Shown here one piece after another: positions 12,245 through 54,752 of a stretch of DNA of 64,000 nucleotides (its first letter is position 1; each line of letters begins with the position of its first letter). The stretch spans positions 11,844,088 through 11,908,087 of the forward strand of contig NC_134031.1 in NCBI RefSeq assembly GCF_964204645.1. Reading direction: 5' to 3'. The notes below the pieces were generated by a model, which saw nothing but the letters and a program-made list of their open reading frames with translations, was not told where the DNA came from and searched no databases. Source of the stretch: Tubulanus polymorphus (Eukaryota; Animalia; Nemertea). The translations under genes were made by a program, and so were the position numbers.

Positions 12245-12250
12245 AATAGA

Positions 12251-33161: not shown

Positions 33162-33919
33162 ATGGTAGAATTAAAAGAATACAGAATATTTGTTGATTCT
33201 AGAAGGCTTACAAATTATAAATCTCATAATTTACTAGTACAATTAGATAGAGAATTCAAGAATTGTGTAGTTTTAAAATTAGTTAATATAAGTTTATGTA
33301 ATTCTTTTTATAATATATCGGATAAAACTTTTGAACATAGAGGGTTTATGATTTATATGAGAAATAAAGATAAATGGTTTCATATATTTTTAAAACCAGG
33401 ATTATATAATTTAGAATCATAAGCGCAGGAAATTAATAGAAGAGCTCGGTTGAAAATCGGGGGCACTTCTGTATTTGAAATTTAATTTAATAAAATTGAT
33501 AGTACTAATAAAATAAGAATAAAGATATCTAATGAACAACATAAATTTATGGTAAACAAACCACTGGCTAAAATGTTAGGAATTAAACCTCTTACAGTTA
33601 CTGGAAACGCAGAAGGCAGCTCAAATATAATACCTTTTACACACTTTTATATTTATTGCAATTTAATCGCGCCAACAAAAACTTTCGAAGCAACTAAAGA
33701 AACAATTTGTAGTTCTAGTATACTAAATATTTTACCGCTATAAAATGTTAAACAATTTGGAACTCAAATAAATTATAATTTAACAGAATGTGATTTTAAA
33801 CCTTTCATTCCTCAATTTAATAATTTTAAATTAGAAATAAGAAATCACAATGGATATATTTAATTGATTTGAATAACTTTCCTGTAATTTATGAATTAGT
33901 TATAAGATGTAGAGAGTAA
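33162..33919 (+). pseudogene. Minor capsid (penton-like) protein, disrupted
   Basis: ORFs 33162-33422 and 33549-33743 with intervening stops. Confidence 0.65.
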
Positions 33920-33935
33920 TTTTTTCATTATATAA

Positions 33936-34290
33936 ATGAATATAACTGTTGGGCCGAGCATATGTTTTGGATTTGATTTTAAACGTGAGAAAGAAATGAA
34001 ATTTAACGTTAATGATGTAATTACACATATCAAAAATATTGCATTTTCTAATGAAACAACGTTTGAGTATGCAACAACAATAGATAAAGAAACTTTAAAT
34101 GTAGAAAAGATTACTAATTTAAATAGAGAATCTTTAAGATTTTATGAATTAGATGAAGATTTTATCATCGATGATTAAAAAAATAGTAATTGAAATATAT
34201 ACAAATGAAACTAGTAATGAAATAAATGTTGAATTAATTGTAAATAAGATAACTAAATATTTTGATGATAGTAATTTTTTTGATAAATAA
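33936..34290 (+). pseudogene. Acidic ~115-aa protein, interrupted
   Basis: Homologous to 19518-19859; stop at 34176-34178. Confidence 0.65.
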
Positions 34291-34512
34291 ATGAGTGATA
34301 ATAAGTGGATAAAAACTGGATTATATAATGGCGCATTACTATCAGTTGGAAGTGTTGGTTATTCAATGGAATTAAAGAAGGTATTCAAAATGGGAAGTGT
34401 TAATGTTGATAGATTTGATATAAATGATATTTTAAAATTAACATTAGCAATTACTTTATCTAATTTAACTATTGATTATTTAGAAAAACAAAAATATATT
34501 CCTCCCATATAA
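34291..34512 (+). CDS. 73-aa small hydrophobic protein
   Basis: Homologous to 19296-19517. Confidence 0.72.
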   Translation: MSDNKWIKTGLYNGALLSVGSVGYSMELKKVFKMGSVNVDRFDINDILKLTLAITLSNLTIDYLEKQKYIPPI

Positions 34513-34536
34513 ATGCGTAATTATTCTACTAAATAA

Positions 34537-34959
34537 ATGGCTTCTGCAATTATAACTATTATAGGATCGGCAATTGTTAACGCTTTAGCATTTACTGGTG
34601 GTGGATATTTATTTAAACATATTGATAAAAATGGATCATTAACAGAACAAAGAAGACATAACTTAGCATTAGAGAAATACAATAAAGCAACAGAAGAATA
34701 TAGAGAAAAGAGGCAAAACTATATGGATTATATTAACAAGGAATTATATGATCAGAAGATTTCACATAGAGATTTTCAATCAGTCGATGATGCAATGAGT
34801 TTATATAACGCGGTAACAAATAAAGAAAAATTACATCTACATAAACCTACAATATCAGATTATTATACCCCAAGTAATGAACAACAGAAATATGAAATAA
34901 TTTGGATTTTAGGTGGAACTGTTATTGTTATATTTGTTGCTTATAAGTTTACTAATTAG
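34537..34959 (+). CDS. 140-aa protein with N- and C-terminal hydrophobic segments and a central coiled coil
   Basis: MASAIITIIGSAIVNALAFTGGGYLF ... IIWILGGTVIVIFVAY. Confidence 0.78.
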   Translation: MASAIITIIGSAIVNALAFTGGGYLFKHIDKNGSLTEQRRHNLALEKYNKATEEYREKRQNYMDYINKELYDQKISHRDFQSVDDAMSLYNAVTNKEKLHLHKPTISDYYTPSNEQQKYEIIWILGGTVIVIFVAYKFTN

Positions 34960-34979
34960 TAATTTTTTTTGCTAAATAA

Positions 34980-35405
34980 ATGGATGATAATATTGAAATT
35001 ATATCTCATGATATAAATAAAACTAAATAAAAAATATATTTAGAAAAACAAATATTAGAATTTGAAAGTGACTTAAAGATAAAAAAGAAAAAATATTTAA
35101 AATCTAAAATTATATATTATCTTATTATTAGTGGTTCGGTTACAATTAGTTCTGTAATAACATTTTTGGCAATATTCAGCCCATTAACACCTTTAGCTAT
35201 ATCAATTGGTGTGTTAGGATTAAGTTCAAGTGTTTTAACTGGTATAAGTTCAAAATTAAATATAAAAAGTAATAAAGAAAAAATTAAAACTAATATAAAA
35301 GAAATAAATAATTTAAAGAATACACTAGATTATACAATAAGTTTAAATGGCCATATAACAGTTGAAGAACAAGATAAATTATTAAAAGAATTAATAAATT
35401 ATTAA
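34980..35405 (+). pseudogene. Two-TM coiled-coil protein, disrupted near the 5' end
   Basis: TAAATG at 34977; IIYYLIISGSVTISSVITFLAIFSPLTPLAISIGVLGLSSSVL. Confidence 0.6.
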
Positions 35406-35421
35406 TTTTTTAATTATATAA

Positions 35422-36801
35422 ATGGCAGATAGTTTTCCAAAAGCTTTCCAATATAATAAATCAATTAAATATAATATTCCTGCAATAGATTTTAATAAAG
35501 ATATTACATATAGAAATGAAGTTTTAGATTCATTAACTAATTTATATATTTATGTTACTGAAACTAATAATTTTAATGCAAAGATGGAAAATATATTTCA
35601 TGTCTATTTAATTAATTTTAAAAAATTGAAAGATGAAAAACAATGGTTATTAAAATCTAATATGAAGTATTGGCAGAACCAATTAAATTTTGCTGTTTAT
35701 TGTGCAACAACAGGATGTGGAATTAGTTGGAATGATCATTTGAATAATTCTAAATATAAATTCAAAGTTTATTTAGATTTCATACATACTTTCAAATCAG
35801 AATAATATTAGAATTAGAGTGCGCTTTACCAGGATCTAGATATTTTAAAGAATTATATAATAATATTAATTTATCAAAGTTTTATAAAATTTGTAATGAA
35901 TTTAATATAGATATAAATAGTTCTGATTTTAGAACAAAAATTGGAACAATAAGATCACTTCCTTGCCCTAAAAAGATTGCCGAATATTGTGCACTTCCCA
36001 TACCATCTAATAGTTTTTATAATATCTATAATAATAAATTAGGTTATGGTAAAATAGAAACTAAGGATTTAGAAACATTAAATTTCAATAAATTACCGAA
36101 ATTTTATGATCATTTAAAACAAGAAAACAATAATGGTTGGGTTTATTTTATTTTAGAAAATAGTGAAGGTTTTACTAAATCAGGTATAGAAAGAATAAAT
36201 CAATCTATTAGAACTTATTTGATATGTATTTTAGGTGCGCAAGTTGAAACAAGATCCCCAATAATTGGAAATTTAAATACATCATTTGATACACAGAAAC
36301 AATTCAAAGTATTATTTGAAGATTCAATTCATAATGATAAAAATAGATCTATTCCAGAAAACATTGTAAGATATCAAAATTATTTAGATAAATCACATAT
36401 TAGATTAAATAATTGTATAGGCCCTAATCTATTTATTATTTCTAATGATTTAGTATTAAAGATGGGAAATATAATTGGTTATAATAATCTAACTAAAACT
36501 GCAACAATAAATAATTCATTTGGATTAAATGATATAAATAAAAAGATAATTACTGCTCCAAAATTAATGGAAGGTGAAAAAAATAAAAAACATTCAATCA
36601 ACAGAAACTAAAACTAAGAATATTAAATTGGATAATGATTCCAAAATAAAAGATTACAATACATCAGAAAATATTAGAACTGATGATATTCAATATGATA
36701 TAATTAAACTAAATGATGATAATAAATCCCATGAAAATACTAAATTAGCTATAACTTGTATAGGAATTGTAATCGGAGGAATATTATATTTTAAATTTTA
36801 A
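35422..36801 (+). pseudogene. Conserved ~460-aa Polinton protein (WQNQLNFAVYCATTGCG) with C-terminal TM anchor; frameshifted
   Basis: ORFs 35422-35805, 36219-36611 and 36574-36801 joined by frameshifts; the C-terminus is contiguous in copy B. Confidence 0.7.
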
Positions 36802-36818
36802 TTTTTTTTATTATGTAA

Positions 36819-38331
36819 ATGGATGTAGAAGGTGGAGAAGATTATGAAATGGGAGAAATGGGAAATAATAATGAAGGATATATTGATGATGATTATAATG
36901 ATGCAGAAACTAATATTGACAATGATGATGAATCAGCATATAATTCTAATTTAGCAGATAGTGGTTCTAAAGCCACATCAACAGATGAATTTGATAGAAG
37001 AACTAAATCGAGAATACCTCCTGAAAATTTAAATCAAGGTTTATCAAGACAAGATTTAGAATATAATAAAATTATTTATAGATTCAAACCTGTATTTGAA
37101 AGATCTGGGTATAATATAAGTGATAGAGATGCTGAACTTTTAGTAGAAAATTTAAAAGTTTTTAAAGGTAAATATTATTATCATTTGGATGGTGATTATT
37201 ATATTGATATCACTAATCAAAAGACAAGACTAAATAAAATATTAGCGGAATCAACTTTGAGATAATTAGAACCAGATAGAATTAAAATAATAAGTATTAA
37301 TAATGAAATAACTGATGTTACACAAGAAGAAAGAGATGATAATATAACAGAATTTAGTGAAAGAATTGATGACTTATTAAAAATAATCAATAAAAATTCA
37401 GAAACAGAAATTGAAGAGTATAGAGATCGATTAGATAAATTAAGATCTTCAACGCCTGAAACATCGAGAAGAGATATCCAACAAATTGATAATGATTCAA
37501 GTCAATTACAATTAGTAAAACATTTTGATAACATGTTAGATACAGTTCATTCATTTGAAGAAGAGATGAATAGTGTTTTAGATACGCCCGGTGCTGAAAC
37601 TGGAATAAATCGAATACAATCTTTACTAGAAATAGGATTATTTGATTTAACTGATGATGAATTAGAAGCATTTCCTGAACAAACACGTAGAGAAATTAAA
37701 GGTATGCAAGAATCAGCTGATAAAATTGCGCATGAAAAAAGTAAAAGAGATATTAAAATTAGAACTTTAGAAAAAGAATTAACTGATAAAAATAAAGAAA
37801 TAGAACAACTAAAATTAGATAGAGATAATAAAGTTATTGAAGAAATCGAATTTAAAAAAAGAAATGCATATTTAGAAAAAGAAAAGATGATTGATAATAT
37901 AACATAGAATTACAAAAACAAGAAATTAAATTATTATTAAAATCATATGATTATAATATTAATAGATTAAAAGTTATTTTTTAAAGATTTGTTGATTAAA
38001 CCAAATTCTGAAATATCATTGAAAGATAGATAAAGTTATTATTTAAATTAGAAGGAATAACAATTCTGTCAATTCTAACAGCTGTAACTATGTTATTTAC
38101 AACAATTGGTTTAGCAATATCAAATGCTTTGAAATCTACTCCTACTCCCAATAAACCAGATAAACCCCCGAATGATAATAATTCTATACAAGATAAAGTA
38201 TTATATTGAAATCTGCAGGAAACATTATTAACTTTGCTGCGGAACATATTATTTTATTTTTAATTACAGTTGTAAGTGCAATTATTTTTGGGCTAGTAAA
38301 CATGATAAAAAATAAACATGATCAAAAATAA
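36819..38331 (+). pseudogene. Large acidic/coiled-coil membrane-anchored protein, disrupted
   Basis: ORFs 36819-37265 and 37533-37907, plus a TM tail matching 17096-17527. Confidence 0.7.
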
Positions 38332-38355
38332 ATAATTAATTTTTTTGTTAAATAA

Positions 38356-39607
38356 ATGAGTGGGAGTTATATCAATCCTTCTAAGAATCATAGAATATCT
38401 AATGCTATTAAAGCAGAAAGATCACATCATATAATTACTCATAACCCTTCTAATATTAATCCCGATGAAACTTTATATGTTAGAATTCCTCGATTAACAC
38501 AAAATACTTTTTATGTTCCAAATAGTATTTATTTATCAGCCGATATAAAAGTAATCGGTAATAATAATAATTATGTTGTTGATAATGTTGGAAGATATTT
38601 GATTAAAAAATTAACAATAAAGATTGGTCCAGAAACAGTTTTCTCATTAGATGATTATAATTTATTTATGCATTATAAAGACTTATGGTTAACTAAAGAA
38701 AATAGAAATAATATGATATTTCAAGGAATCCAATCAGAAAACCAAAATAAATTAAGATCAGAATCACATAATGCAATATTAACTAATGCTATAGATAAAT
38801 TGATAAAAAGTATATATGGAAGCAAATATAAAATTCCATTAGACTTTGAATTGATAAATAACAATGCGCCTTTATATAAATACGCAATTCAAGAAGACGT
38901 TATATTTGAGATAACATTTACTCCTTTTAATGAAATTGTAATATCTAGCGTTAATAAAGATATGAGTTATAAATTATCGAATATATGTTTAGAATATGAT
39001 ACAGTAACTGATGAAAATATTTCAAGTATAATTCAAACTAAATACAATCAAGGATTTTCATTATTATATGATTATATTGATAAATTTAAAACTGTAACTA
39101 TTAATGCAAATGATGAAATAATTAATGAGAATATTAACTTCCCAAGAAGATCTATTAAAGGTATATTAATATTTTTTACCATTGCAACATATACTAATGG
39201 CGCAATAAATGTTGATAATTATTATAATCCTGAAATAACAAAAGTAGAAATAACTATCGAGGGAATAGCAAATAAAATATTTTGTCAAGGAATGAGAATG
39301 ATTGATCAATGGCCAGAAATTAGAAAACATTTTATGAATGAAAAAGTAAAATCATCTGAAAATTGTAACATTAATCAAATTGATTATTATACCGGTAATA
39401 AATATGCATTATGGTTAGATTTTAGAACAACAGAGGATAAATAATTCATTACATGGTTCTGGAAAAAAACTAGAAAACACTAAAGATGGAATACAATTAT
39501 TCATGACAAAGAATAAAGGAATCAAAAATTTTAAAATGCACATTTATATTATATCTGACGCGCAATTAAATATTGTAAATTCACAATTAGATAGTGTTAT
39601 GTATTAA
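38356..39607 (+). pseudogene. Major capsid protein, frameshifted at ~39440
   Basis: Near-identical to 15828-17075; a 4-nt insertion truncates the ORF at 39444. Confidence 0.78.
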
Positions 39608-39639
39608 AATTTTAACTTTAATAAAAATTTATTATATAA

Positions 39640-40464
39640 ATGGAAGGAGGTAAAGTATATAAACATATTCCATACATCGATACACATGAAAATAATGATG
39701 GTTTATATTATGTAATACCTTGTAATATAGCTTTGATATTTGATCCTATTTTCAAAATTTATAAAACTAAACTAATAGAAATCGATAATAATAAAAGTGA
39801 AGTTGTTGATAATTTAAGTAATGTAATTGATAATAATGTAATACCTTCTACATCTAATAATGTAATACCTACTACATCTAATAATGTAATACCTACTACA
39901 TCTAATAATGTAATACCTACTACATCTAATAATGTAATACCTACTACATCTAATAATGTAATACCTTCTACATATAATAATTTAATAATATTAAATGTTA
40001 GTAAAAATAGAAATGATTGTGATTATTGTAAAGGTGAATTTTCAAACGCTCCATCAAATTGGAATAAACATATGAATACAAATTCACATATTACTAATGT
40101 AATAGAACGTGTTGGTTTAAGAGAATTTATAGAACACCCATTTAGATATGTTACAAATAAAAAAGTAAATGGTAAAGAATTATATGAAGATTTTTTATTA
40201 GCAACACCTAATAAAGATGAATTAGATTTAACTGATGCTAATGAAATATTAGGATCAAACACTGTAAGTGAAATATTAGGAGCAAACACTAATAAAGATT
40301 CTATGAAACATAAAGTAGAAAATAATGATAACTTTGATTGGATGAATAAGCATAACAATGAAACAACTATTGATGATTCGGTAAAAAAGGTGAAAAATAA
40401 GTATAAAAATAATAAAGAATTTGAAGGAGAAAATTCGGTAGAGAATTTGAAACAAGAAAATTAA
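39640..40464 (+). CDS. Variable protein with six VIP(S/T)TSNN repeats (24 bp) and a Zn finger; probably interrupted at the 3' end
   Basis: Repeat at 39832-39981; CDYC...H..T..H. Confidence 0.65.
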   Translation: MEGGKVYKHIPYIDTHENNDGLYYVIPCNIALIFDPIFKIYKTKLIEIDNNKSEVVDNLSNVIDNNVIPSTSNNVIPTTSNNVIPTTSNNVIPTTSNNVIPTTSNNVIPSTYNNLIILNVSKNRNDCDYCKGEFSNAPSNWNKHMNTNSHITNVIERVGLREFIEHPFRYVTNKKVNGKELYEDFLLATPNKDELDLTDANEILGSNTVSEILGANTNKDSMKHKVENNDNFDWMNKHNNETTIDDSVKKVKNKYKNNKEFEGENSVENLKQEN

Positions 40465-40599
40465 TTTTAGAAAATTATTTGACGCCTGCGAAAAAAATGT
40501 ATAATTTCTGGGCTAAGCTAATGTGGAATTGCAAATTTGAAATCGAAGTTTTAAGAAATTTGTGGAATGATGAGATTTGGCGATTGGGTAGATGATACA

Positions 40600-41023
40600 G
40601 CGGGTCTTCGACTCTAGTAGTGGTTTAAATTTTTTTATTGAAAATTCTCAATAATTGATCGCGAACTTGCGACCGACTTCATTTACTTATGCCTCTAAGC
40701 TGGTCTGCAACTTCATTGCCTCCATGGTTGAAGAACGAGCTCTTCTGATGTCTGCTTCATCATGACTTCGAGCATATCGTGTGGCCTAGCCAGCCGGCCC
40801 GGGCCACGGGTTTGGCTGTCACTCGATATCCTAGAGTCTTGAGTCTGGTTGGGTTGAAGTAGACATTGTCATTTAAAATAACATGCTTATGTTGTTCTGT
40901 ATGAATTACCCGTGTGTCATGTATGTTGTATTAATTTATTTTAAAATTTGTATTTATTGGATTTGGGAATTTTATCCCGAAATTTCAATGTAATAAGGAT
41001 CAATAAAGAATTGAATTGAATTG
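40600..41023 (+). mobile_element. Probable 3' end of a non-LTR retroposon inserted in Polinton-C (left boundary approximate)
   Basis: GC-rich stem-loop at ~40774-40829, AATAAA twice, (AATTG)n tail to ~41023. Confidence 0.45.
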
Positions 41024-41771
41024 TCACCTAATACACATGCCATCAGAGGACGCGGAGCCGTATATGATAGCTATGCTTTTATAAATTGCTAATCTCACGA
41101 AACCTGCATACTCCTAATATCAAACATATTTTCTAAAACGTTTGAATATTGAAATTATATGTTTACACATTTTCATATTGACCGCTTTTAGCCGCTGATG
41201 AAATTCACGCCGGCCCTACACACATCGTAGATAGCTTCGTCATTCCACCGGCATGCCAACGTCAGGGTCTGACTTTTATATCAGACTTCCAAATCGTGTA
41301 TACATCCGCCATTTAACCGAATAATCCGATTTACTTATCATTTCTATTTATGCCTGCCCCTTCTGATATAATCATACATCCTTTACTATTACAATACGTC
41401 TTCTAATGATATTCAATGCAATATAACATTTCGACGTTCAAATATAGGTCATTATATAATCACAGGAAGCCATTCTACATCTATGTCAATAATATTTTGC
41501 CAGATAGCTTGTTTGTGTACACATAGACCTGTGACGTTTTGCACATCGATTTACGGCTGTCGTTTGTAAAATGACGCTGAATGGTTAACATTGTTTAGGT
41601 TTCATAATGGTAACGTTTTATAAGGCGTCAAAAAATTGATGGGGTATGATAGTGAATTGGAGAGTGATGATGAAAGTGATTCAGAAAGTAATTTTCTAAC
41701 ACTCAAAAAGTATTAAAGGTTGAAAATTGTATAAAATAATAGTAAATAAAAAAGGGGGTTTTAAGTATTTA

Positions 41772-41852
41772 AGGTATCTAATAGGGTATCAGGTATTAGG
41801 GTATCAGGTATTAGGGTATCTAATGGGGTATCAGATATTAGGGTATCTAATA
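41772..41852. repeat. Short tandem repeat GGGTATC(AGGTATTA/TAAT)
   Basis: About six imperfect units downstream of the ATPase stop. Confidence 0.8.
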
Positions 41853-41869
41853 CATAGTCATATAAATAG

Positions 41870-42480
41870 TTATTTTATAAATATATATTCATAGGGAAAT
41901 TGTAGTCTCAGTAATAATTTTGAACCTTTATTATTCTTTAATTTATTCATATATTCATCATGTAATTCAGTAGGTATAATTTGATTTTCTTCCAATGATT
42001 GTTGCATAGATTTTTTATCTTTGTTATAAAATAAAACTAGAAATCTAATGTTTTCTCTAAAGTCTTTAACAATTGAATTATATTTTTGATTTAAAACCCA
42101 AGTTGTTATCCCAAAATGTCTCCCGGAGAAAGCTAGATAACATAACTCACTTTCTCTAACTTTTGAATCATGTAAATTTGCGCAATCATCTATAATGAAT
42201 AATGTATTTGATCCTTTATAAGTATCAATTGCTATTTTAATACAATTATCTAAATTTTCTTTTACTTTTTTAGGATTAATATAATAAACTTTTTCATCTT
42301 AACTATATCTCTATTATATGTTTTATTCATTTCATAAGTAGGACAGAATAATATTATATTATCAAAATGATTCTTATAAATAGTTTCTAACAAGTTTAAT
42401 ATGAAATGTGTTTTACCACAATTGGTTACTCCAGTAACTAACATATTATGCGGTTCGAATATAAATAAATCTTTATTCAT
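41870..42480 (-). pseudogene. Packaging ATPase, frameshifted
   Basis: GVTNCGKT in 42262-42480; the remainder matches 13320-13931 in another frame. Confidence 0.88.
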
Positions 42481-43553
42481 TTTTTTTTAAATTTTACTAG
42501 ATAAAATCCATTCATTAAATTTATCATCGTATCCTTTATAACCAAAGAATACTTTTTTCCTTTTAGAGTTTTTGTTTTCAATACTTTTTCTATTTTGTAT
42601 TCTATTTCATCTGGATTTGGTACAAGTGATAATTCTTGTTCATAGAAATAACCTAATATTTCTTCATCTTTTAGATCTTCTAATTTATAAACAAAAGGTT
42701 TAGTTAATATCATCTTTTTAATCTTGAATATTTCTTCTGTAAAATTAGGGGTATAACCTTTATAAAATGTTTTTCTATATTTAGATATTCTTACGTGTTG
42801 TCCAATTTTGAATCTAGGTTCACCGAAATCATGTGTAACAAACGCTCCATATAAATTATTCCAAACTATTTCCGAATTATCTTCTTTTCTAGCTTGTATA
42901 GGTTTCATATTTATAGAACTATGTTTAGAATTATTATAACCTTTCACTAAATCATCTAACACATCGATATATTTGTATGTTTCATTAGCAGTTAAATATT
43001 TCCACATTCTAGTTTTCAATGTTTTATTAAATGTTTCTATAATAGATGCTTTTTTATCTGAATGTGTTGAAAAATATTTTACATCGTTATCAGATAATAG
43101 TTTTTTAAAATGTTTGTTATAAAATTCCTTACCTTCATCAAATTGTATCTTATCTGGATTAGCTTCTTTAAATATAGATTTAAAAGCATTTGTAACTTCT
43201 ATTCCAGTTTTATTTTTGATTGGAATTGACCATGCGTATCTACTGAATATATCTATAACATTCAGTATCCAGAAATATCCTTTGTTGTATTCCTCTAAGT
43301 TCTTCATGTCAATTAAATCTGCTTGCCATTGTTGATCGATATATGAAACCATAACTTTCCTTGTTAAATAAGTTTTATTCATTTTCTTGTGGATTTGATA
43401 TGTTGGTTGATTTTGTAACCATGATTTCAATTCACTATATTTTATATTGCTATTATCAGATTTAATTTTATTCCATAATTCTGAAACGTTAGAATATGAT
43501 ACTTCACTTTCTGGGTTATAATATAAATCTCTAAGATATTGTTCTTTTTTCAT
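42477..43553 (-). CDS. int: rve integrase; chromodomain frameshifted near the C-terminus
   Basis: Close homologue of 12251-13327. Confidence 0.92.
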   Translation of the reverse strand: MKKEQYLRDLYYNPESEVSYSNVSELWNKIKSDNSNIKYSELKSWLQNQPTYQIHKKMNKTYLTRKVMVSYIDQQWQADLIDMKNLEEYNKGYFWILNVIDIFSRYAWSIPIKNKTGIEVTNAFKSIFKEANPDKIQFDEGKEFYNKHFKKLLSDNDVKYFSTHSDKKASIIETFNKTLKTRMWKYLTANETYKYIDVLDDLVKGYNNSKHSSINMKPIQARKEDNSEIVWNNLYGAFVTHDFGEPRFKIGQHVRISKYRKTFYKGYTPNFTEEIFKIKKMILTKPFVYKLEDLKDEEILGYFYEQELSLVPNPDEIEYKIEKVLKTKTLKGKKYSLVIKDTMINLMNGFYLVKFKKK

Positions 43554-43559
43554 CTTCTT

Positions 43560-43922
43560 TTAATCCATTAATAATAATTTAGATTTAGTTTCAATGACTT
43601 TATCATTTGATTTATTTTCTGGTATGATAGGTTTATTATCATTGGAATCATTATTGTTATAATCAGATTTATACTTATATCTATATATTACACCAGATAA
43701 TATAATAACTGTTACTAATCCAATTGTAATATATAATTTATAATTACTTCCAGCATTAGAAGAATCAGATGGATTATTATTTGAATCAATATCAGATAAT
43801 TCATTAATATCAGTTAATTTCTTTTTCTTAGCTTTTTTTAATTCAGAAGATCTTTTACCTAATTCTCTTGCCCATTTAATTTGTTTCTCGGATCTAGCCT
43901 TTTTCTTAACTCCATCACTCAT
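43560..43922 (-). CDS. 120-aa membrane protein
   Basis: Homologous to 11882-12244. Confidence 0.78.
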   Translation of the reverse strand: MSDGVKKKARSEKQIKWARELGKRSSELKKAKKKKLTDINELSDIDSNNNPSDSSNAGSNYKLYITIGLVTVIILSGVIYRYKYKSDYNNNDSNDNKPIIPENKSNDKVIETKSKLLLMD

Positions 43923-44517
43923 TTATTTTACTTAATTTTTGTTCTGATTCATTTTCTGTTTCGACGTTTGGTTGTAGTACATCTGTTTCGTTCTTACCTG
44001 ATTTATATTCCATAGGTTTGATGTTCGAAAATGTTATGACACCAGTAGAAATTAATGTCATAACCGATCCCAATTGAAATGAAGCATATCCGACCCATTT
44101 TTGTAATTCAGTCATAACTAAGTAGTCATTTTTCAAATCACTATATAATTTATTTTCATCATCAATTGGTATTAACTGGTTACATAACTGAGAATAACAT
44201 TTGACAATACCATTCGAAATAGAATCACTTATTTTAGCTAATCTAGCTTCTTCATAAATCTTAAAATATTTTATTACTTTATCTGGTTTCATAGAGTCTA
44301 GTTCTTGAAAAGTAATGATTCTATTTAAAAACTCCTTAGATTTCCCGCCAGCAATTAATAATTCAAGATGATGCTTACAATATAAATAGTATTCATAATC
44401 TATATTACAATTAACTTGAGCACAATTAGAAACAACTGTATCTTTATTATCACTTATACCTAAATCATCTAATGTCTTTTCAATATCAATACTATTCTTA
44501 TTAGATTTCTTTGACAT
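43915..44517 (-). CDS. 200-aa conserved Polinton protein
   Basis: Homologous to 11290-11889. Confidence 0.8.
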   Translation of the reverse strand: MSKKSNKNSIDIEKTLDDLGISDNKDTVVSNCAQVNCNIDYEYYLYCKHHLELLIAGGKSKEFLNRIITFQELDSMKPDKVIKYFKIYEEARLAKISDSISNGIVKCYSQLCNQLIPIDDENKLYSDLKNDYLVMTELQKWVGYASFQLGSVMTLISTGVITFSNIKPMEYKSGKNETDVLQPNVETENESEQKLSKINE

Positions 44518-44817
44518 TTATATTACAGGAAAAAAGCAAAAAAAAATATAAGTATTCTTCAAATGATACCTGTATCTCTTTAGATTAATACTAGTTTAGT
44601 TAAAGGTAAAGAATTTTAGTATTAGTTATTGTTTTTTTAGTATTTTTTATTTGTGATATAAAGTATTCTTTTTGAAAAGAAAGTATTAAAAAAACAATAA
44701 CTAATACTAGCTAGTTGAAGATATTGTTTTTTTTAATATATTTTATTTGAATTCTATTTGATATCTCACTACTTTTGTTTATCTATTAGGAGCAGTAGTT
44801 ATAACTGTCCAGATAAG

Positions 44818-45485
44818 TCATTTCGGATCCTTGATATCAAATTCCTCAACGTATTGTTCATTATTTGGATTATTGTTCCATTGATCAATAAATTTCTTTG
44901 CCTTTGTTAACTGTTCTGAATATAACTGTAAATCTAGTTTATTAGATTTGGTTTGATTTTCTTTCTTTTCTAAAGGCCTTAAATTTTTCCAACCCCAAAT
45001 AAGTTTTTTATTGTATTCATCATTCATGTTAAATTTAGATATTGGTAACACGTGATCAATATGGTAATAATCCCCATAATTATCTATATTCATTTTATCA
45101 TCGAATTGATATATAATCCATGAAATTCATCTGAACAACCCAATAAATTAGATAGTGTTTCTGAATGTGTTTCTTTGTTGAATAATTGTGTTAATCTAGA
45201 CCGTAAGCATTGTTTCAATCTAAAATTAAGATCTGTTTGATATCTTTCTCTCATATATTCTGCCATATAATCATTATAAGATTCTCTATTATCTTCTCGG
45301 TACTGTTTGGTGTATAGTTTAAAACAAGTTTTACAACAATATTGAAAACCATCTTTGCTAATCTTACGCTTACTAAATTCTGTTAATGATTTATCTAATT
45401 CACATTTAGAACACTTCTTGTAGTATATGTTTATAACACCAGTGTTATTTGTAATATTGATAGTTTGTGGTTGTTCTAGTTCCAT
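44818..45485 (-). pseudogene. HNH endonuclease, frameshifted by a short deletion
   Basis: ORFs 45090-45485 and 44818-45093 match 9477-10130. Confidence 0.85.
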
Positions 45486-46539
45486 TTATTATACATATTT
45501 TTTACTAAATTGGTTAATATTTTAGAATCCTCTTCCATTTCTTCAACCAACGTCATCCTTTTTCATTCCTCGCTGCTTTTGATAAGTCAGTTTCGATTCC
45601 TTGATATCTAAATAATACCAGTTACAATACCCGCGTCACATGCGGACATACAGGAGCGTTTTTGCTTAATGCGCATGCGTTAATCATAATTATATATTCA
45701 TTCTATAAATTATTTAAAATAGAAACAACACATGCGTTACATGCGTCACATGCGGCCATTGATGTCCGGTTTTGCTTAATGCACATGTGTTAATCATAAT
45801 AGAAACAACTGAACACATAAGATATCAAAACGTGTTCGCATTAGGCAAGACCGGGCATTCAGGCCCGGTTTGGTTCAATGCGCATGCGCTAATCATAATT
45901 ATATATTCATTATGTAAATAGAAACAACCGATATGAAATATCAAAACAATGTGCACTAGGCAAGACCGGGCATTCAAGCCCGGTTTGGATCAATGCGCAT
46001 GCGCTAATCATAATAGAAACGACTGAACATAAAAATTCACCAAACAGATTTACACAATACATTATACAAGTTGTTCAGTCGTTTCTTCCAATACATCATT
46101 TGATTTCTATAAATACAATTTATAATTACAAGCATTTTTTCAATTGCTGGTAAATATTGAACTACATCAACAAATGTTAAACTTAATCATTGGAGTCTTA
46201 ATGTTTTTGAAATTCTTATATAGTTTATTCGTCGATCTTTTGGTGATTCTATTGGTTCGATATCCATTGCTGTTGATTCCTCAGTCAGAAAGAGTATCTT
46301 GAGTTTCTCTATCACTTCTTGATGCGTATGGCGTTTTATTAATCTAAAAGATATTAGCGGTAACTCTAACCATCTAAAAGATATACTAAATACACTTAAA
46401 TATATCTAAAGGTTTCATATTTAATAGCCTTAATAACTACAACAAACAGTACTTACATTTAGATTTATAATTGTAAACTATAAACTCCTAATTTCGTTTC
46501 GAGAGATAGAATATCCTGAGCACAATATTAGAGCGTATG

Positions 46540-46715
46540 TTCATTTCCGGGGCGATTTCTAGAATGACACGTCGTTGATTATGCCACGTCATTTGGTTCC
46601 GGCGCGCCTTTCTAGAATATTCTACACGTTTCTGATTATGATGTGTCATCTCTATTCAGAGTTCCAGCACACCGTTCTAGAATTTTCTCTACACGTTTGT
46701 AACATTATGTGTCAT
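46540..46715. promoter_or_regulatory. Three-unit repeat carrying heat-shock-element-like and bZIP-like motifs
   Basis: TTCtaGAA at 46557, TTCtaGAAtaTTC at 46610, TTCtaGAAttTTC at 46675; GCCACGTCA at 46583. Confidence 0.5.
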
Positions 46716-46791
46716 AATGTCTCGGCGTCATAGTAACAGCTGTGAATTTATAGATTTATTCCATAGCTCTGTACATTGAATGTATATAGGC

Positions 46792-47043
46792 TCAAATAGA
46801 ATCATGTTCTAGTATAAACATCAGATCCTTGATATCAAATTCCTCAACGTATTGTTCATTATTTGGATCATGATTCCATAATTCAATAAATTTCTTTGCC
46901 TTTGTTAACTGTTCTGAATATAACTGTAAATATTCTAGTTTCAATTTATTCTCTAAATGTGTTTTAGTTTTATTGTGTCTTGCTTTTTGGGATTTATCTA
47001 CATTGATATTACATGTTGGACAGTAGTACTTATTTGCTTCCAT
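46792..47043 (-). CDS. 83-aa TIR-initiated Zn-finger chimeric ORF
   Basis: Homologous to 9146-9397. Confidence 0.6.
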   Translation of the reverse strand: MEANKYYCPTCNINVDKSQKARHNKTKTHLENKLKLEYLQLYSEQLTKAKKFIELWNHDPNNEQYVEEFDIKDLMFILEHDSI

Positions 47044-47527
47044 TTTAATACTAAATGTTTTATTAAAATTGATTTTAGAAGTTCAATGATTTAAATGTTA
47101 TTTATTTATATGAATATTTTAAGAGTAATAGGGGTAATGGGCTTTCAGGTTAAAGGTTGAATGGTCGAGTTCATTAAAAACAAATATTAAAAGTAATTAA
47201 AAACTATAATATATTTTCATAACCGCGTGCATTTCAGTTGAATAATAGAATAATTATTATTATTTGAATATATTTGACTATATGAATTTGTGTATTGTAA
47301 ATAAATCAATTGGTCGCGGAGCGGAGCGGTAGCGAAGTGGAGCGACCAATTGATTTATTTACAATATGCTTTTTAAATTATTGATATCTTAGAATAAATA
47401 TTTAGTTTTAATATAAAATGCACGCGGTTATGAAAATGTATTATAGTTTTAATTGCTTTTAATGTTTTGGTTTTTAATGAGCTCGACCGTTCGACCTTTG
47501 GTATGAAAGCCCATTACCCCTATTACT
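46930..47527. repeat. Right TIR of Polinton-C; palindrome at 47124-47527
   Basis: Near-identical to 24954-25554. Confidence 0.93.
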
Positions 47528-47734: not shown

Positions 47735-48783
47735 TTGGCTAATATGGAGTTTGGCTCTAGGCTCATTTTTGGAACTATAAACATGATTTCGCCAGAAAGT
47801 AAAAAATTGAAAAATGATGATAGTTGGACTTGTAGTTATGAGAGAGACGATAAGAAAAAAGTCATCACCTATAAAGAATTAATTGGAACAATCATGAATA
47901 CAAGACGTGGAACTATTGACTGGTTTATGGATCGTAATCTGATTGCAGCTTCACGTCAGTGTCCGGTTTGTAATGATGAAATGAAATTGTCATTGGACAT
48001 CAGCAACAAATCTGCGAGTGAAGGATGGCGGTGGAGTTGCCGAAAACGTGTTGATAGTGTGTTGCACCAACGGTTTAAGTCGGTTCGAGCCGACAGTTGG
48101 TTTTCTAAATCTAACTTAACGATCGCAGAGATATTAGAAATAACGTATTGGTTATCGCGCGGAGTACAGCAGACCGTTATACAGACTGAAATGGGCTTAT
48201 CCAGCAAAACAATTGTCGACTGGGCTAGTTTTTTCCGTGAAGTTTGCGAACTGGTTGTTTTTTACAATTGTAAAGCCATAGGCGGACCAGGCAAAGTAGT
48301 GGTAATCGATGAAAGCAAGTTCGGAAAACGGAAATTCAACCGAGGACGATGCGTCGATGGGCAATGGGTTTTCGGGGGCATTGAGAGAGGGAATAATAAG
48401 AATGTGTTTATGGTCAGTGTCGATAAACGTGATAGCGATACCCTGATACCGATTATCGAAAAGTGGATACTGCCGGGAACAACAATCATGAGCGACTGCT
48501 GGGAAGCGTATTCCTGCCTAAACCAACGCGGTTTCGAGCATTTGACCGTAAATCATAGTGTGACATTTGTTGATCCGGATACAAACGCGTGCACGAATCT
48601 CATAGAGATCAGTGGCTACATGCTAAAAAGAATTTCCCGAAGTACGGCACAGTGAAAGGTCATTTTGATTCGTATCTTGGACATTATTTATGGCGTTGTC
48701 GTGTTGGGGATGATGATCCGTTTTGTCGTTTTTTGGAGGACGTTTCTAAAATTTACAAATCAAACCGGATAAATGTACCATAG
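47735..48783 (+). pseudogene. Merlin / IS1595 (ISXO2-like) DDE transposase, one frameshift
   Basis: CPVC..M..W.C Zn region; VVIDESKFGKRKFNRGR, WVFGGIER, TIMSDCW.AY, HLTVNHS, TN.IE; C-terminus in 48589-48783. Possible left TIR GGTAATC at 47606; no right TIR seen. Confidence 0.92.
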
Positions 48784-48834
48784 GACAAGTGTCGGATTTT
48801 TAATCTGTAAATGATTAATTGTAATGAATATTTA

Positions 48835-49075
48835 ATTGAATATTAATCAAATTGATTATTATACCGGCAATAAATATGCATTATGGTTAGATTTTAGAAC
48901 AACAGAGGATAATTCATTACATGGTTCTGGAAAATAACTACAGAACACTAAAGATGGAATACAATTATTCATGAAAAAGAAAAAAGGAAGCTTAAATTTT
49001 AAAATGCACATTTATATTATATCTGACGCACAATTAAATATTGTAAATTCACAATTAGATAGTATTCAATATTAG
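48835..49075 (+). pseudogene. 3' remnant of the Polinton-A major capsid gene
   Basis: NINQIDYYTGNKYALWLDFRTTEDNSLHGSGK...IISDAQLNIVNSQLDS. Confidence 0.85.
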
Positions 49076-49105
49076 AAATATTAAGTTAAAATTAAGGATA
49101 TATAA

Positions 49106-50233
49106 ATGGGTGGTAAAAAAACTCCTAATACTAAAGAACAATATTTAAGAAATTTATATTACAACCCTGAGAGTTCGGTTGCTTATTCTTCTACCAAAAA
49201 TATATGGCGTCAAGTAAAACAAGATAAATTAGATAAGATAATCCCACAAAATTTAGTTAAATATAAAGATATAAATGAATTCATGTTAGAACAACCAACA
49301 TATACAACACATAAAAAAATTGTTAGAAAATATAAAACTCGTAAAACTATGGTAAGTTATGTAGATCAACAGTGGCAAGGAGATTTAATTGATATGAAAA
49401 ATGTTAAGAAAGATAATGATGATTATTGATGGATATTGAGTATAATTGATATTTTTAGTCGTTATGTATGGAGTTTCCCACTTTATAGAAAAGATGCTGT
49501 ACAAACATCAAATGTTTTAAGAAAATTTCTTTCGGGTGATAAACTAAAACCAGAAAAAATACAATTTGATGATGGAAAAGAGTTTGATAATTCACTTGTT
49601 CATGAACTCTTAGACAATCATAATATTAAATATTTTTCAACAAAATCGGATAAACAAGCGGCAGTTGTTGAACGATTTAATAGAACATTAAGAACAAGAA
49701 TGTGGAAATATTTTACAGCAAATAATACTTTTAAATGGATTGATGTTTTGCCAAAATTGATAGAAGGATATAATAATTCTTATCATTCTTCTATTGGAAT
49801 GAAACCTATTGATGCTAGAAAACCTGAAAATTCTGAAATTGTTTGGAATAATTTATATGGAGCATTTCTTGTAGATGATTTTGGCGAACCTAAATTTAAA
49901 GTTGGTCAAAATGTTAGAATTTCTAAGTATAAAAAGATATTTGATAAAGGATACGATCGAAATTTTACTAGAGAAATATATAAAATAAAAAAGGTTATAA
50001 CAACAAAACCATATGTCTATAAATTAGAAGATTTAGATGGTGAAGAAGTTGATAGCTACTTTTACGAAGAAGAATTGAGTTTAACTACTGAAAATCTAGA
50101 ACAAGAATATAAAATTGAAAAAGTATTAAAAACAAAAACTATTAAAAGAAAAAAATATTCTTTAGTAAAATGGGTTGGATGGCCAGATAAATTCAATGAA
50201 TGGATATTATCAAGTAAAATTAAAAATATATAA
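49106..50233 (+). pseudogene. int: Polinton-A rve integrase with chromodomain, one internal stop
   Basis: WQGDLIDM, IDIFSRY, QFDDGKEF, VERFNRTLR, LVKWVGWPDKFNEWI. Confidence 0.92.
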
Positions 50234-50841
50234 ATGAATAAGGAATTATTTATATTTGAGCCTCATAATATGTTAATTTCTGGCGTAACAAATTGTGGAA
50301 AAACTTATTTTATATTAAATTTATTAGAAACTGTTTATAAAAACTATTTTGATAATATAGTATTATTTTGTCCAACATATGAATTTAATCAACCTTATGA
50401 TAGAAATATTACTAGAAATAATAAATTTATTATATTAGATCCTAAAACAGTAAAAGAAAATTTAGATAATTGTATTAAAATAGCAATAGATATTTATAAA
50501 GGATCAAATACATTATTCATTATAGATGATTGCGCAAATTTACATGATTCAAAAGTGAGAGAAAGTGAGTTATGTTATCTGGCTTTCTCTGGGAGACATT
50601 TCGTGATAACAACATGGGTTTTAAATCAAAAATATAATTCAATTGTTAAAGACTTTAGAGAAACATTAGATTTCTAGTTTTATTCTACAATAAAGACAGA
50701 AAATCGATGAAAAATGCACTTGAGGAAAATGATATTATTCCACATGATTTACATAATGAATATATGGATAAATTGAAAAATATTAAAAGATCAAAATTAC
50801 TATTTAGATTACAACACCCATTTAAATATGAATTTATTTAA
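50234..50841 (+). pseudogene. Polinton-A packaging ATPase, frameshifted
   Basis: GVTNCGKT, FIIDD, GRH; 1-nt frameshift at ~50662. Confidence 0.88.
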
Positions 50842-50851
50842 ATTCAACAGG

Positions 50852-51116
50852 TTTGTTAATCTATTACATATTTAGTTACATTCTAGTTGAATTCTAGTTA
50901 TTGGTATTTGAAACAAAAATCAAATAAAATTCAACAATATTTTAACTAGCTTGTTAATCTAGTATATTTTTAGTTACATTCTAGTTGAATTCTAGTTATT
51001 GGTAGTTGGAACAAAAATCAACCAGATTTAACAAGAAATAAATAAAAACAACAATATATCAACTAGCTTGTTAATCTAGTTGAATTCTAGTTACATTCTA
51101 GTTACATTCTAGTTGC
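50852..51116. repeat. Intergenic repeats CTAGTT(AC/GA)ATT with a ~100-bp duplication
   Basis: Visible repeated units. Confidence 0.75.
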
Positions 51117-51146
51117 AACATCACAACTTATTTTTTTGTTATATAA

Positions 51147-51752
51147 ATGGGAGGTGAAAAGAAAATAAAATCTAAAAATGGTGATGTTCCAATTGAAAAA
51201 ACTTTAGATGATTTAGGAATAACAGAAAACAAATTAATTCCAGATGATGGTGCTTTAAATAATGTTACAACAAATAATAATTATGAATATTATCTTTATT
51301 GTAAACATCAATTAGAAATATTAATAGCATCTGGAAAATGTAAAAATTTTATCGGTAAAAATTTAACTTATAATGAATTAGATACAATGAAATCAGATGA
51401 AATTATTAGATTATTTAAGATTTATGAAACCGCGAGAACAGCTAGAATTAATGACGCGATATCAGAAAATGTAGTAAAAGGTTAGAGTAAATTATGTAAT
51501 TATATGCTGCCAATTCAAGATGAAAATAGATTATATGTTGATTTAAAAAATGATTATTTAGTTATGACCGAATTAAATAAATGGATTGGATATTTATTAT
51601 TGGATATTTGGACATTTCAATTAGGTGGATTTATGACATTATTATCAACTGGAGTTATAACATTTTCAAATATTGAAAGTAAAAATATTTCTATAATAAA
51701 TGAACAAGGTGGAAGAAGTGAAGAAAAAACCGAGATCACAGAAACAAATTGA
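51147..51752 (+). pseudogene. Homologue of the 200-aa Polinton protein, internal stop
   Basis: IEKTLDDLGI, YEYYLYCKH, LKNDYLVMTEL. Confidence 0.8.
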
Positions 51753-52041
51753 ATGGTCTCGGCAATTAGGAATTAAATCACAAGAATATAAAAAAGCTGT
51801 AAAAGAAAAAATAAGTAATGAAAATGGTGAAAATATTGTAATTTCTACTCCTTCTAATGATAGAATATTTGATAAATGTCTATATTTTACAGTTGGATTT
51901 GTAATTGTATTCATTTTGATTGGGTGTAATTGGTATAAGAAATCAAATAAAATTCATGATATTAATAATTCTGAAACAACTGCTATCAAAAATGAAAATA
52001 CTTCTGAAATTCCAAAATTGATAATAAAAAAAATGGATTAA
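51700..52041 (+). CDS. Homologue of the 120-aa membrane protein
   Basis: KKKPRSQKQIEWSRQLG; TM LYFTVGFVIVFILIG. Confidence 0.78.
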   Translation: MNKVEEVKKKPRSQKQIEWSRQLGIKSQEYKKAVKEKISNENGENIVISTPSNDRIFDKCLYFTVGFVIVFILIGCNWYKKSNKIHDINNSETTAIKNENTSEIPKLIIKKMD

Positions 52042-52519
52042 TATTTTAGAAAAAAAGCAAAAAAAATAATTGAATATCTCACTACTTTTGTCTATCTATG
52101 CGGAGCAATTAAATTGTCCAGATAAGTCATTTCGGATTCTAGATATTCATTATTTTTATTAATTTATTTTGTTTTTTTAATTTGAAGTTTTTACTTGAAT
52201 ATTGTATTACAGTCGTTTCTTATTATTAGTTTTTTCTTAAATTGAAAGATGGCAGCACAGGGTGTGATGCCAAAATGAATATTTGAATTTGAATTTGAAT
52301 TTGTAAATCAATTAACATGGTAATTGATTACTAATTTGATCAAAAATTGTATCATAATTAAGTTAAAAATCCATAATTCATTTATCAGTTTTCATTTTAT
52401 ATTCTTTTCATTCGGAATAATTTATAATTTCAAATTTCACATATTTCTTTAGTAAACACCAACAACATTTACTTAGGTGTTTTAGCTAAGTATATAAGGC
52501 AATTTATTCGACCACTGGA

Positions 52520-52834
52520 GTGCTGCCGGGCTTGGCTTGCAGGGGCATTTCGAAAATGCACCTTTGTCCACCCTCCGTGGTTCTCCTTCAGTTTCGACTT
52601 TCGATCCTCCTTTCGGGGGTGAGGGGTTGATAGGAAATGCATTAGGCGCCTTTAATATAATGTGTTTCCTGTCAACCATTGAAGGAGAATTGGTGAGGTG
52701 TGGGTCACAGGGGTGTAAGTAGAAATGCTTGGGGATAGGTATCTCGTTGCGCCTCTCAATAACGGGATGCTTATCCCCTAAAAACTCTGCGAGTCTGCTA
52801 AAACTTACCGTAAAGACATTGAAATATTCCTTTT
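52520..52834 (+). ncRNA. Candidate structured non-coding RNA, unassigned family
   Basis: GC-rich island with at least six long helices rich in G-U on the plus strand; TATATAA at 52491; first TTTT at 52831. Confidence 0.55.
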
Positions 52835-53082
52835 AATCACGAGAGAGAGAATATATCCTGTCCTGTGTGTGTTGTATGTACTGCGTGCTTATTATATAAC
52901 TGCTAGCTATCCAATATAACAACAACGTTGATTGCCTCACCTGTTTGATCGTTCAATATTCAAATGAAGTACTACTCTCTTATAATAACATGTAACAGAT
53001 GTTGGGCTAGCATGATTATAGTTGTTCGTAAAACGACTAAGGTCATTTTGGATTCTAGATATTCATTATTTTTATTTTTTAT

Positions 53083-53409
53083 TTAATCAACAATTTCTAA
53101 ATCATGATGACCGTCTTCATTTTTTCCATGATAGATTATTTTAAATCCTTCTAAATCTTTTAATTCCTCTGTACTCAATGAAACCCATTTATCGGGTAAA
53201 AATACTTTAAATTCTCGCGATGTACTAACATTACAGTAACTTAAATTCGCTGATACTTTCTCTCCATATTTAGTTTTCATCTTTTCTAATTTCAATATTT
53301 TATGTTCAATTTCTTTCGTAACATCAATTAACTTTTTTATTTCAAATTGTTTTTTTGCTGGTTTTATTCTGTTATTTATTGTTGCTAAGAATGATTTCCT
53401 ATCTCCCAT
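53083..53409 (-). CDS. 108-aa homologue of the 117-aa putative SSB, starting at the inner edge of the right TIR
   Basis: SFL..I, TKYGEKV, FKVFLPDKW..LSTEEL..L, YHGKNEDGHHDLE. Confidence 0.75.
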   Translation of the reverse strand: MGDRKSFLATINNRIKPAKKQFEIKKLIDVTKEIEHKILKLEKMKTKYGEKVSANLSYCNVSTSREFKVFLPDKWVSLSTEELKDLEGFKIIYHGKNEDGHHDLEIVD

Positions 53410-53486
53410 TTATTAGGAAAACAAATTACTTGTGGTGATGAGTGGTGTTTAGTACTCTGGTATGAAACCCACATCTTCCAATTACT
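53407..53486 (-). repeat. Right TIR of Polinton-A
   Basis: Reverse complement of 671-758; followed by TSD CCTTTG. Confidence 0.9.
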
Positions 53487-54752
53487 CCTTTGGACGTTTC
53501 GGTGGGGATTTACATTCCTGGCAGATTGCTCACTCTTTAACAAAAGTTCTTACCCTTGTGGTCAACCCCGGGCACCAAAACCTTTGGCGGGCTTTGTGTT
53601 CTGTTTTTGCCCTTCCAAGGTGCTTTCCAGCAAACCCCTGATGCAATTCCTTAATTGCTTTTGGTGCAAGGCATGCAGGCAGGACAGTGCGGTACTGCTG
53701 TTTCGTGGAGTCTGTGGGTGGCTTGAAAAGCAGAAGACTATCATGAAGTACTACCCTCTCAAACAGACCATAAAGACTCCGAGCCAACTCCACACTGTTG
53801 CAGTTCTGCGACAGATGATTGCCTTACTCGTCTCCAGCGTTCTTATTACAGAGTAAATATCAGGGTCGTTGCGCTGTGCCAATTAAATTTCGGCTCGGTG
53901 TAAGCAATCACGATCAACTTTGACATTTGCTACGAGTGGTGACTTAGGGAGGCCTGTTGGCCCATAACTTGGGCAGATTCCATGCTTCTTGACACGGTTT
54001 GGTATACGTGAGACGGCATCCGCATTGGTGTGGAGCCTGCCAGGTCTATGTAGGGTCTCGAAGTCATACTCCTGTAGCCGTTCGAGCCAACGTGCCACTT
54101 GTCCATTAGGGTCTTTGAAAGTCTTGAGCCACTTGAGCACAGCATGATCAGTACGAACGATAAATTTTCTGCCCAACGTGTAGTGACGAAAGCGGTCTAT
54201 CATGTCCACTAAAGCCAACATTTCTCTCCGTGTTGCGCAATAATTTTCTTCTCCGCACCTGAATGCACGGTCACCATACTCAATGATCCTCTCGCTCCCG
54301 TCTGGTTGGGCCTGAGACAATACCCCACCAATTGCCCAGTTACTAGCGTCGCAGTCCAGTATAAAAGTGCCACCTGAGACGGTGAAATCTGGGAATGCTA
54401 GAATCGGTGGATTGATTAGTCTGTCTTTCAAGGTCTGGAATAAGTCTTCCTGTTCTTTACGCCAATCGAACGGATTATTCTTCCTCGTAAGGCGATGCAA
54501 TGGTGCGGCTAGAGAGGAGAGGTCTGGGATATATTAAGAGTAGTATGTGACAGGTCCCATGAAGCTACGTAATTCCGCCACATTCTTTGGGACCGGCCAG
54601 TCTCTTACCACCTCACACTTTGAACTGTCTGCCTCGATTCCAGCTGAACTTACAATCCTGCCCAGGAACTTTATTTTCCGCCTCATAAGTTTGCATTTTC
54701 TTGGTTTCAGCTTCAAGTTGGCATACCGTAGGTACGTGAAAACACCATCCAG

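Follow-up and report, generated by a model that had tools for sequence, protein, structure and literature searches.

A predicted structured RNA in a repeat-bounded Polinton cassette of the nemertean Tubulanus polymorphus, a candidate decoy for double-stranded RNA sensors

Here, we describe a predicted structured RNA carried by a Polinton (Maverick) element of the nemertean Tubulanus polymorphus. It lies in a stretch of 64,000 nucleotides (nt) of contig NC_134031.1 (assembly GCF_964204645.1, positions 11,844,088 to 11,908,087, forward strand), hereafter the window, whose numbering is used throughout. The RNA-type structure is real and under selection: the plus strand folds far better than shuffled controls, and in a diverged subfamily the two long hairpins have changed in sequence and kept their pairing. 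Judging by the signals in its DNA, the stretch very probably makes a real RNA. We regard it as an even call that this is an RNA of about 290 nt, likely a transcript of RNA polymerase III (Pol III) from a U6-type promoter, that acts as a wobble-rich double-stranded RNA (dsRNA) decoy, resembling the virus-associated (VA) RNAs of adenoviruses but standing outside their family. A preliminary description of this DNA had proposed that the Polinton carries a structured RNA, specific to one strand and furnished with U6-type signals, and that core stands; the length it gave and a small UUCG-capped stem do not.

Results

The island that encodes the RNA differs from its AT-rich surroundings in composition, as first noticed (50% GC in 52520-52795 vs 22% upstream, in 52150-52500, and 32% downstream), and in folding energy. 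On the plus strand it reaches -140.1 kcal/mol (z -9.04), a value that none of 100 shuffled sequences equalled, vs -92.2 kcal/mol (z -3.96) on the minus strand. The fold of 52520-52795 contains 103 pairs, 19 of them G-U, and its longest run of Watson-Crick pairs only is 10 bp. All four helices listed in the preliminary description pair base for base, with Watson-Crick or G-U pairs only, and its 20-bp hairpin at 52625-52677 folds as such; the hairpin at 52731-52778 was recovered too, with 19 bp rather than the 18 first counted. The mean pair probability of these two long hairpins is 0.98-0.99. The UUCG-capped stem cannot be regarded as conserved, as it has a pair probability of 0.38 and is absent, by eye, from a diverged class of reads. 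Among 1278 scanned strand-windows of 200 nt, the island came 5th and 12th, the four higher ranks being taken by two near-symmetric AT-rich palindromes.

Polinton replication probably passes through displaced single strands, and the island could be a single-stranded DNA structure serving strand-displacement replication, packaging or cassette recombination, without any RNA. DNA parameters, too, give the plus strand the better fold (-56.4 vs -46.0 kcal/mol), and the cassette around it is recombinogenic. However, the DNA hairpins of the Polinton (8801-9000 and 14401-14600) fold equally on both strands, unlike the island; its 19 G-U pairs are cheap in RNA; and both the TATA box at -29 and the T run right at the foot of the closing stem signal transcription. 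A purely DNA-level role is distinctly improbable.

Selection on the fold was assessed with a contig (X3 record 4) that covers 52627-52778 with 26 substitutions and 2 gaps, and that represents a subfamily found in about a third of the reads. Within the 39 pairs of the two hairpins, 13 of 14 substitutions keep pairing: there are three double compensatory changes (52630/52672, 52634/52668 and 52637/52665), seven single changes that preserve a pair and one that breaks it. Pairing is kept at all eight substitutions of the apical hairpin, which holds the three double changes, and at five of the six in the side hairpin; the exception, 52748, adjoins the loop, and the contig letter is the one carried by 630 of 642 reads. 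When the same substitutions were shuffled among paired positions, a mean of 6.3 pairs was broken, with a probability of 1.1e-4 for at most one broken pair and of 7.5e-5 for both measures. Covariation among homologues, suggested earlier as a check, is present in the diverged contig, and a further, unphased double change (52729 with 52780) would lengthen the side hairpin. The sequence changes on both arms and the shape is held, which points to recognition of shape.

These substitutions also bear on two other readings. One minus-strand frame, the only open one, runs without a stop across the island, which might thus be a remnant of a protein-coding gene, or else a set of neutral inverted repeats. 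We rejected coding on that strand, as 17 of 20 tested substitutions would be non-synonymous, and double compensatory changes are unexpected under either explanation; both are largely refuted and, in our opinion, scarcely credible. The island could instead be a Pol III precursor of viral microRNAs or Dicer-1 products that silence genes of the host or the element, like the cluster of bovine leukaemia virus (BLV), the TMERs of murine gammaherpesvirus 68 (MHV68) or the mivaRNAs. Its hairpins measure 53 and 48 nt, the 20-bp one can stack on a 15-bp helix, nemerteans have kept the microRNA machinery (PMC11114477), and viral Pol III precursors of microRNAs exist (PMC12498455). Yet both arms of both hairpins carry substitutions, including 52630 and 52634, close to where the apical arm has its 5' end, whereas the BLV seeds stay intact (PMC12498455), and it is the entire 290-nt fold that appears to be kept, beyond the hairpins alone. 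The microRNA option, which had been raised from the start, is weakened by this variation, and we consider it unlikely.

The signals upstream of the fold resemble those of type-3 Pol III genes. As first reported, TATATAA lies 29 nt before 52520, its first letter at 52491; read by eye, a diverged contig has it too, with a different sequence closer to the start site. A CACC stands at -63 relative to G52520, where a candidate proximal sequence element (PSE) begins (Table 1); in chicken 7SK, the TATA box occupies -31 to -25 and the PSE -67 to -46 (PMC2235858). Similarity between copies starts where a PSE is expected: at 52460 the depth of reads climbs from about 500 to 675, and two contigs become divergent just upstream of 52457. 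Type-3 promoters are those of U6, 7SK, H1, MRP and Y RNA, while the VA genes are type 2 and the EBERs hybrid (PMC8362101). With the usual consensus patterns, an A-box is found only at two mismatches (five places) and one B-box at one mismatch (52599). Promoter spacing alone is weak, because the generic ACC...TATA pattern has 13 matches across the window and four related loci; only two of these matches are GC-rich and long, and the second (54389) has no fold (z 0.33). A bacterial promoter scan was empty, and is not pertinent here.

At the other end, the first T4 run was correctly placed at 52831 in this copy (52405, 52480 and 52831 are the only ones in 52401-52900), but it is probably not the usual end. 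Other copies were traced in read tables: the stretch occurs in four of ten listed runs, all from one organism and a single study, and a raw DNA run labelled as that species was included too. Following 52795, 223 reads at a depth of 489 (153 at 323 in a second table) carry 14 extra letters, which end in a T run and are complementary, by eye, to 52523-52533. Also by eye, T4-5 lies behind the closing stem in three classes of reads or contigs, and directly behind the 3' arm in the diverged read class and two single contigs. With this added pairing and T run, an RNA of about 290 nt would be the usual product, with a terminal stem of some 22 bp leading straight into the terminator, instead of the roughly 310 nt first estimated; this stem length was read by inspection of longer copies. 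The window copy has drifted elsewhere as well, since about 96-98% of reads have another letter at 52524, 52621, 52748 and 52815. In the raw DNA run (1934 million letters), depth over the island is about 470-720, which, with a genome of 313-358 Mb (PMC8468679, table), corresponds very roughly to 77-133 copies per haploid genome if the organism of the run is that species.

Searches for known families were negative. Among 4227 Rfam families nothing reached the gathering score, and three unrelated chance matches appeared at E 6-10; adenovirus VA RNA, the RNA of the signal recognition particle (SRP), RNase P/MRP, Y and vault RNA gave no Rfam match at E up to 10, and ARAGORN found no tRNA in the island. 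We rejected a tRNA-derived short interspersed element (SINE), for which there is no tRNA, the A and B boxes are weak and the copies have common flanks for more than 200 nt upstream. We also rejected 7SK, since a single GATC (52603) stands against the two paired GAUC needed (PMC2995076), and Rfam gave no match. However, such RNAs often escape homology search (PMC2770079), and the island could be a captured, diverged host type-3 gene (7SK-, SRP-, RNase P/MRP-, Y- or vault-like, or undescribed) or a SINE, used as a decoy for the partners of that RNA or idle. Type-3 promoters are a host feature (PMC8362101), the size is like that of 7SK or SRP RNA, and in a third of copies the downstream context is another one. 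Against such a capture stand the failure of 4227 families to match, the single GAUC, the lack of a tRNA and of a good A or B box and, for a SINE, upstream flanks that retroposed copies would not have in common; we think it quite unlikely.

Further afield, exact-pattern scans of viral, metagenome and prokaryote-genome contigs returned 0 matches each, and integrase and capsid queries found no relatives in viral contigs. Seven related loci were available as partial contigs, four found by capsid (71-76% identity) and three by polymerase (36-45%), and they contain no sequence match to the RNA and no comparable GC-rich fold. A covariance model of 119 positions, built on the one copy of the window, matched nothing but that copy and its reverse strand when run on the window and these seven loci. 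In the open-access literature, searched by title and start of abstract with subscription journals outside its scope, there was no Polinton-encoded Pol III RNA.

Self-comparison of the window revealed two Polinton copies, element 1 (about 8796-25554) and element 2 (about 30117-47527, inverted), and a third Polinton fragment (48834-53490). The predicted RNA gene sits in the latter between converging Polinton open reading frames (ORFs), and is enclosed by 44-bp direct repeats. Four reads jump from 52133 to 53050, omitting the 916 nt between the repeats, and 18 return from 53076 to 52287, so copies without the cassette and copies with tandem cassettes exist. Since neither the sister Polintons nor the seven related loci yielded a copy, the RNA is accessory cargo and not core. 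In the marine locus L001, three protein genes occupy the space from the left motif to the homologue of ORF 53083-53409. The RNA could nevertheless serve the element itself, as a scaffold for a Polinton protein, a cofactor of packaging or an antisense RNA that curbs read-through from the converging ORF 53083-53409, and its position between converging ORFs and its conserved shape would suit such a role. A core function should be universal, however, so a cassette that is missing from the sister elements and from L001, and that can be lost or doubled, disfavours this idea, for which we see a slim prospect.

Several other non-coding features were seen in and around these slots. A 20-nt motif recurs at module borders in all three Polinton copies (52124-52143, 53040-53059, 44815-44834 and 10967-10986, with looser versions at 45582 and 46826), and it may mark places where accessory modules are swapped by recombination. 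In element 1, the slot equivalent to the RNA cassette (10600-10900, minus strand) has several small hairpins of unrelated sequence (z -3.5 on the minus strand), and the corresponding slot of element 2 has short repeats (45633-46014). A non-coding slot of element 2 holds a GC-richer hairpin of 127 nt (40744-40870, plus strand; z -4.7 on the plus and -3.5 on the minus strand) with no TATA/T-run pattern, which could represent either another RNA or a small inserted sequence. Lastly, a second conserved non-coding block lies 3' of the RNA (52840-52975, plus strand; by eye also in element 1 at 10410-10250, minus strand). It consists of a GA-repeat motif, also present at 46504, followed by a TATA-like box at 52893, has no fold (z 0.13) and is possibly another promoter; a 10-mer at 52805 resembles the core of the vertebrate U6 PSE.

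Overall, the window contains Polinton/Maverick copies intermingled with BEL/Pao, Gypsy-type and IS1595-like elements. Its Pfam matches include protein-primed PolB, an rve integrase with a chromodomain and the A32 ATPase, and a 415-aa ORF matches double jelly-roll capsid clusters, which we treat as a lead. The capsid relatives (P0046, P0126-P0133) are hypothetical proteins of several Bartonella assemblies, on contigs below 2 kb, and are likely eukaryotic contamination. The PolB ORFs (21029-23317, 30476-32761 and 2013-2990) show a weak Endonuclease VII-like match at their start (E about 5e-5). L001 (5877-10343) and the third fragment (48834-52041) encode capsid, a small ORF, integrase, ATPase and two ORFs on a single strand, an order that differs from that of elements 1 and 2 and implies at least two rearranged Polinton subfamilies side by side. 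ORF 53083-53409 has 80% DNA identity to L001 490-161. The Polinton ends are doubled as inverted terminal units, each some 400 nt long and centred on a palindrome (25148-25555, 47123-47527 and 8796-9063). A satellite array of 31-bp units (29245-30121, about 28 units) adjoins the truncated start of element 2, an IS1595/ISXO2-like transposase (47744-48655) adjoins its end, and the BEL element of the window, along 73% of its length, is 98% identical to a protein assigned to Tubulanus polymorphus.

Table 1. Coordinates of the predicted RNA gene, its cassette and the flanking Polinton features
Feature	Position	Strand	Remarks
Candidate PSE	52457..52474	+	Starts at -63; position fits a PSE at -67 to -46 (PMC2235858)
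TATA box TATATAA	52491..52497	+	-29 from G52520
Predicted RNA body, this copy	52520..52795	+	Start site inferred from TATA spacing; z -10.4 (+), -5.1 (-)
Terminal stem, 5' arm	52523..52544	+	52534-52544 pairs with 52785-52795, P 0.98; 52523-52533 complementary, by eye, to extra letters after 52795 in other copies
Long arm	52545..52728	+	Helices 52545-51/52722-28, 52557-75/52695-717, 52578-92/52678-92; pair probabilities 0.96-1.00
Apical hairpin, 20 bp	52625..52677	+	52625-52644/52658-52677; predicted to stack on the 15-bp helix beneath
Side hairpin at three-way junction, 19 bp	52731..52778	+	52731-52749/52760-52778
14-nt deficit of this copy	52795..52796	+	Lacking: remainder of terminal stem 3' arm and T run
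First T4 run, fallback terminator in this copy	52831..52834	+	Nearest T4 run upstream at 52480
Conserved Polinton non-coding motif, left edge of accessory slot	52058..52157	.	Common to element 1 (11042-10966), element 2 (44761-44837) and L001 (2532-2433)
Left 44-bp direct repeat	52126..52169	+	93% identity to 53042-53084
Right 44-bp direct repeat	53042..53084	+	Self-comparison of window
Left Polinton fragment	48834..52041	+	Capsid 3' end, integrase/chromodomain, A32 ATPase, two small ORFs; gene order as in L001
Polinton ORF, 108 aa, right flank of cassette	53083..53409	-	31% identity to ORF adjoining PolB in element 1, E 2e-17

Discussion

Our analysis suggests a model in which the host factors SNAPc and TBP would bind the element at -63 and the TATA box at -29, and Pol III would start near G52520 and stop at the U4-5 directly behind the terminal stem, a step that we think very likely as a whole. 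The RNA would take the shape of a three-way junction, at which the terminal stem (about 22 bp) meets a side hairpin of 19 bp and the long arm that bears the 20-bp apical hairpin. With its 5' end paired and a short U tail at its 3' end, it would be suited to Exportin-5, of which a terminal stem with a single-stranded 3' end is the determinant in VA RNAI (PMC7589676). Helices of 15-22 bp broken by G-U pairs would bind PKR, RIG-I-like or ADAR-type proteins without activating them, an outcome that we somewhat favour once Pol III transcription is granted, and the decoy would shield the converging transcripts of the Polinton during an active phase. As a precedent, VA-I inhibits PKR with a 22-bp apical stem that contains four wobbles, at least 20 bp being needed, and wobbles are enriched in EBER1 and nc886 (PMC6599070); the predicted RNA agrees with VA-I in how long its helices are and in how many wobbles they contain.

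Regarding the target, lophotrochozoans have RIG-I-like receptors (PMC5640609, PMC8998645), a nemertean included (PMC8998645). Nemerteans reportedly have neither DICER2 nor an endo-siRNA signature (PMC11114477), so RIG-I-like receptors, ADAR or PKR are likelier targets than the siRNA machinery, and the RNA interference decoy that was first considered loses ground. It is also tempting to speculate that animal Polintons carry VA-like decoy RNAs in swappable, repeat-bounded cassettes, of which this one would have a pure U6-type promoter and be tuned against PKR, RIG-I-like or ADAR proteins in an invertebrate without Dicer-2; we put this forward tentatively, as a possibility that may well fail.

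Several points weigh against the decoy reading. Both Pol III transcription and sensor binding are predictions from DNA signals, fold and analogy, and the candidate PSE was called by its position, in comparison with chicken 7SK. The double compensatory changes taken alone are less striking (P 0.023 for three or more), 12 of the 26 substitutions of the contig fall outside the test (one in a loop, 11 unpaired or with a partner beyond the contig), and there are few independent covariation events, because the data comprise two main subfamilies of one species. Forty of the 56 variant rows, which are unphased, divide into 10 at unpaired positions, 21 that keep a pair and nine that would break one if the partner is unchanged; five of these nine lie at 52689-52698, a stretch whose partner strand is not covered and in which the diverged subfamily carries indels. 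The cassette was not found in elements 1 and 2 of the window or in the seven related loci, and about 196 reads, a third of copies, depart from the window sequence after 52846 into another downstream context. The stacked arm of 20 plus 15 bp nears the length at which PKR is activated. Finally, PKR is reported from oyster (PMC5640609) rather than from this host.

If the wider speculation on animal Polintons is true, it would speak for an infectious or strongly expressed phase of these elements, in which they counter dsRNA sensing with RNA, convergently with adenoviruses. With about 100 copies, a covarying RNA family offers a direct way to ask whether the Polintons of animals are active viruses acting against innate immunity, and which of the dsRNA sensors is important in a lophotrochozoan without Dicer-2.

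The Polinton carrier belongs to the same broad virus lineage as the adenoviruses, whose VA RNAs are about 160 nt long. At about 290 nt, the predicted RNA differs from them in length, in its upstream TATA/PSE-type promoter in place of the internal A and B boxes of VA, in its extra side hairpin and long arm, in having no Rfam match and in its origin, an invertebrate endogenous element, known from DNA alone. The GGGU and ACCC tetramers, which form a conserved tetrastem in VA RNA, both occur here, at 52570 and 52702; they stand in the reverse of the VA order, and the predicted fold is in another register. Conversely, it resembles VA RNAI and RNAII in its viral-type Pol III layout, its paired ends with a long terminal stem ending in U4, its wobble-rich apical helix of about 20 bp and its central junction (PMC6599070, PMC7589676). 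The combination that marks VA RNAs, a terminal stem with four U and a wobble-rich apical stem of 20-22 bp, is found here, the terminal stem by eye and in other copies. The structure is thus best described as an undescribed one, real and selected, that is VA-like in the proposed model and not a VA member.

EBER1, EBER2 and nc886 are likewise wobble-enriched Pol III RNAs that bind dsRNA sensors, and the EBERs have upstream TATA-like elements (PMC8362101, PMC6599070); they differ from the predicted RNA in being shorter, in the hybrid promoters of the EBERs, with internal A and B boxes, and in lacking any sequence or Rfam similarity to it. The BLV microRNA cluster and the MHV68 TMERs are viral Pol III units with hairpins of pre-microRNA size, but they have type-2 promoters and keep their seeds, whereas here the hairpins are part of one large fold and both arms vary (PMC12498455). 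U6, 7SK, H1, MRP and Y RNA have the same TATA near -30, element near -63 and oligo-T end, and 7SK a similar size (PMC8362101, PMC2235858). From these host RNAs the predicted one differs in having no Rfam match, no paired GAUC-GAUC (PMC2995076) and no separate 3' hairpin before the U tail, and in being multi-copy and Polinton-borne. Finally, the viral Pol III RNAs treated in the excerpts of PMC8362101 and PMC12498455 have type-2 or hybrid promoters, whereas the predicted Polinton RNA looks type-3.
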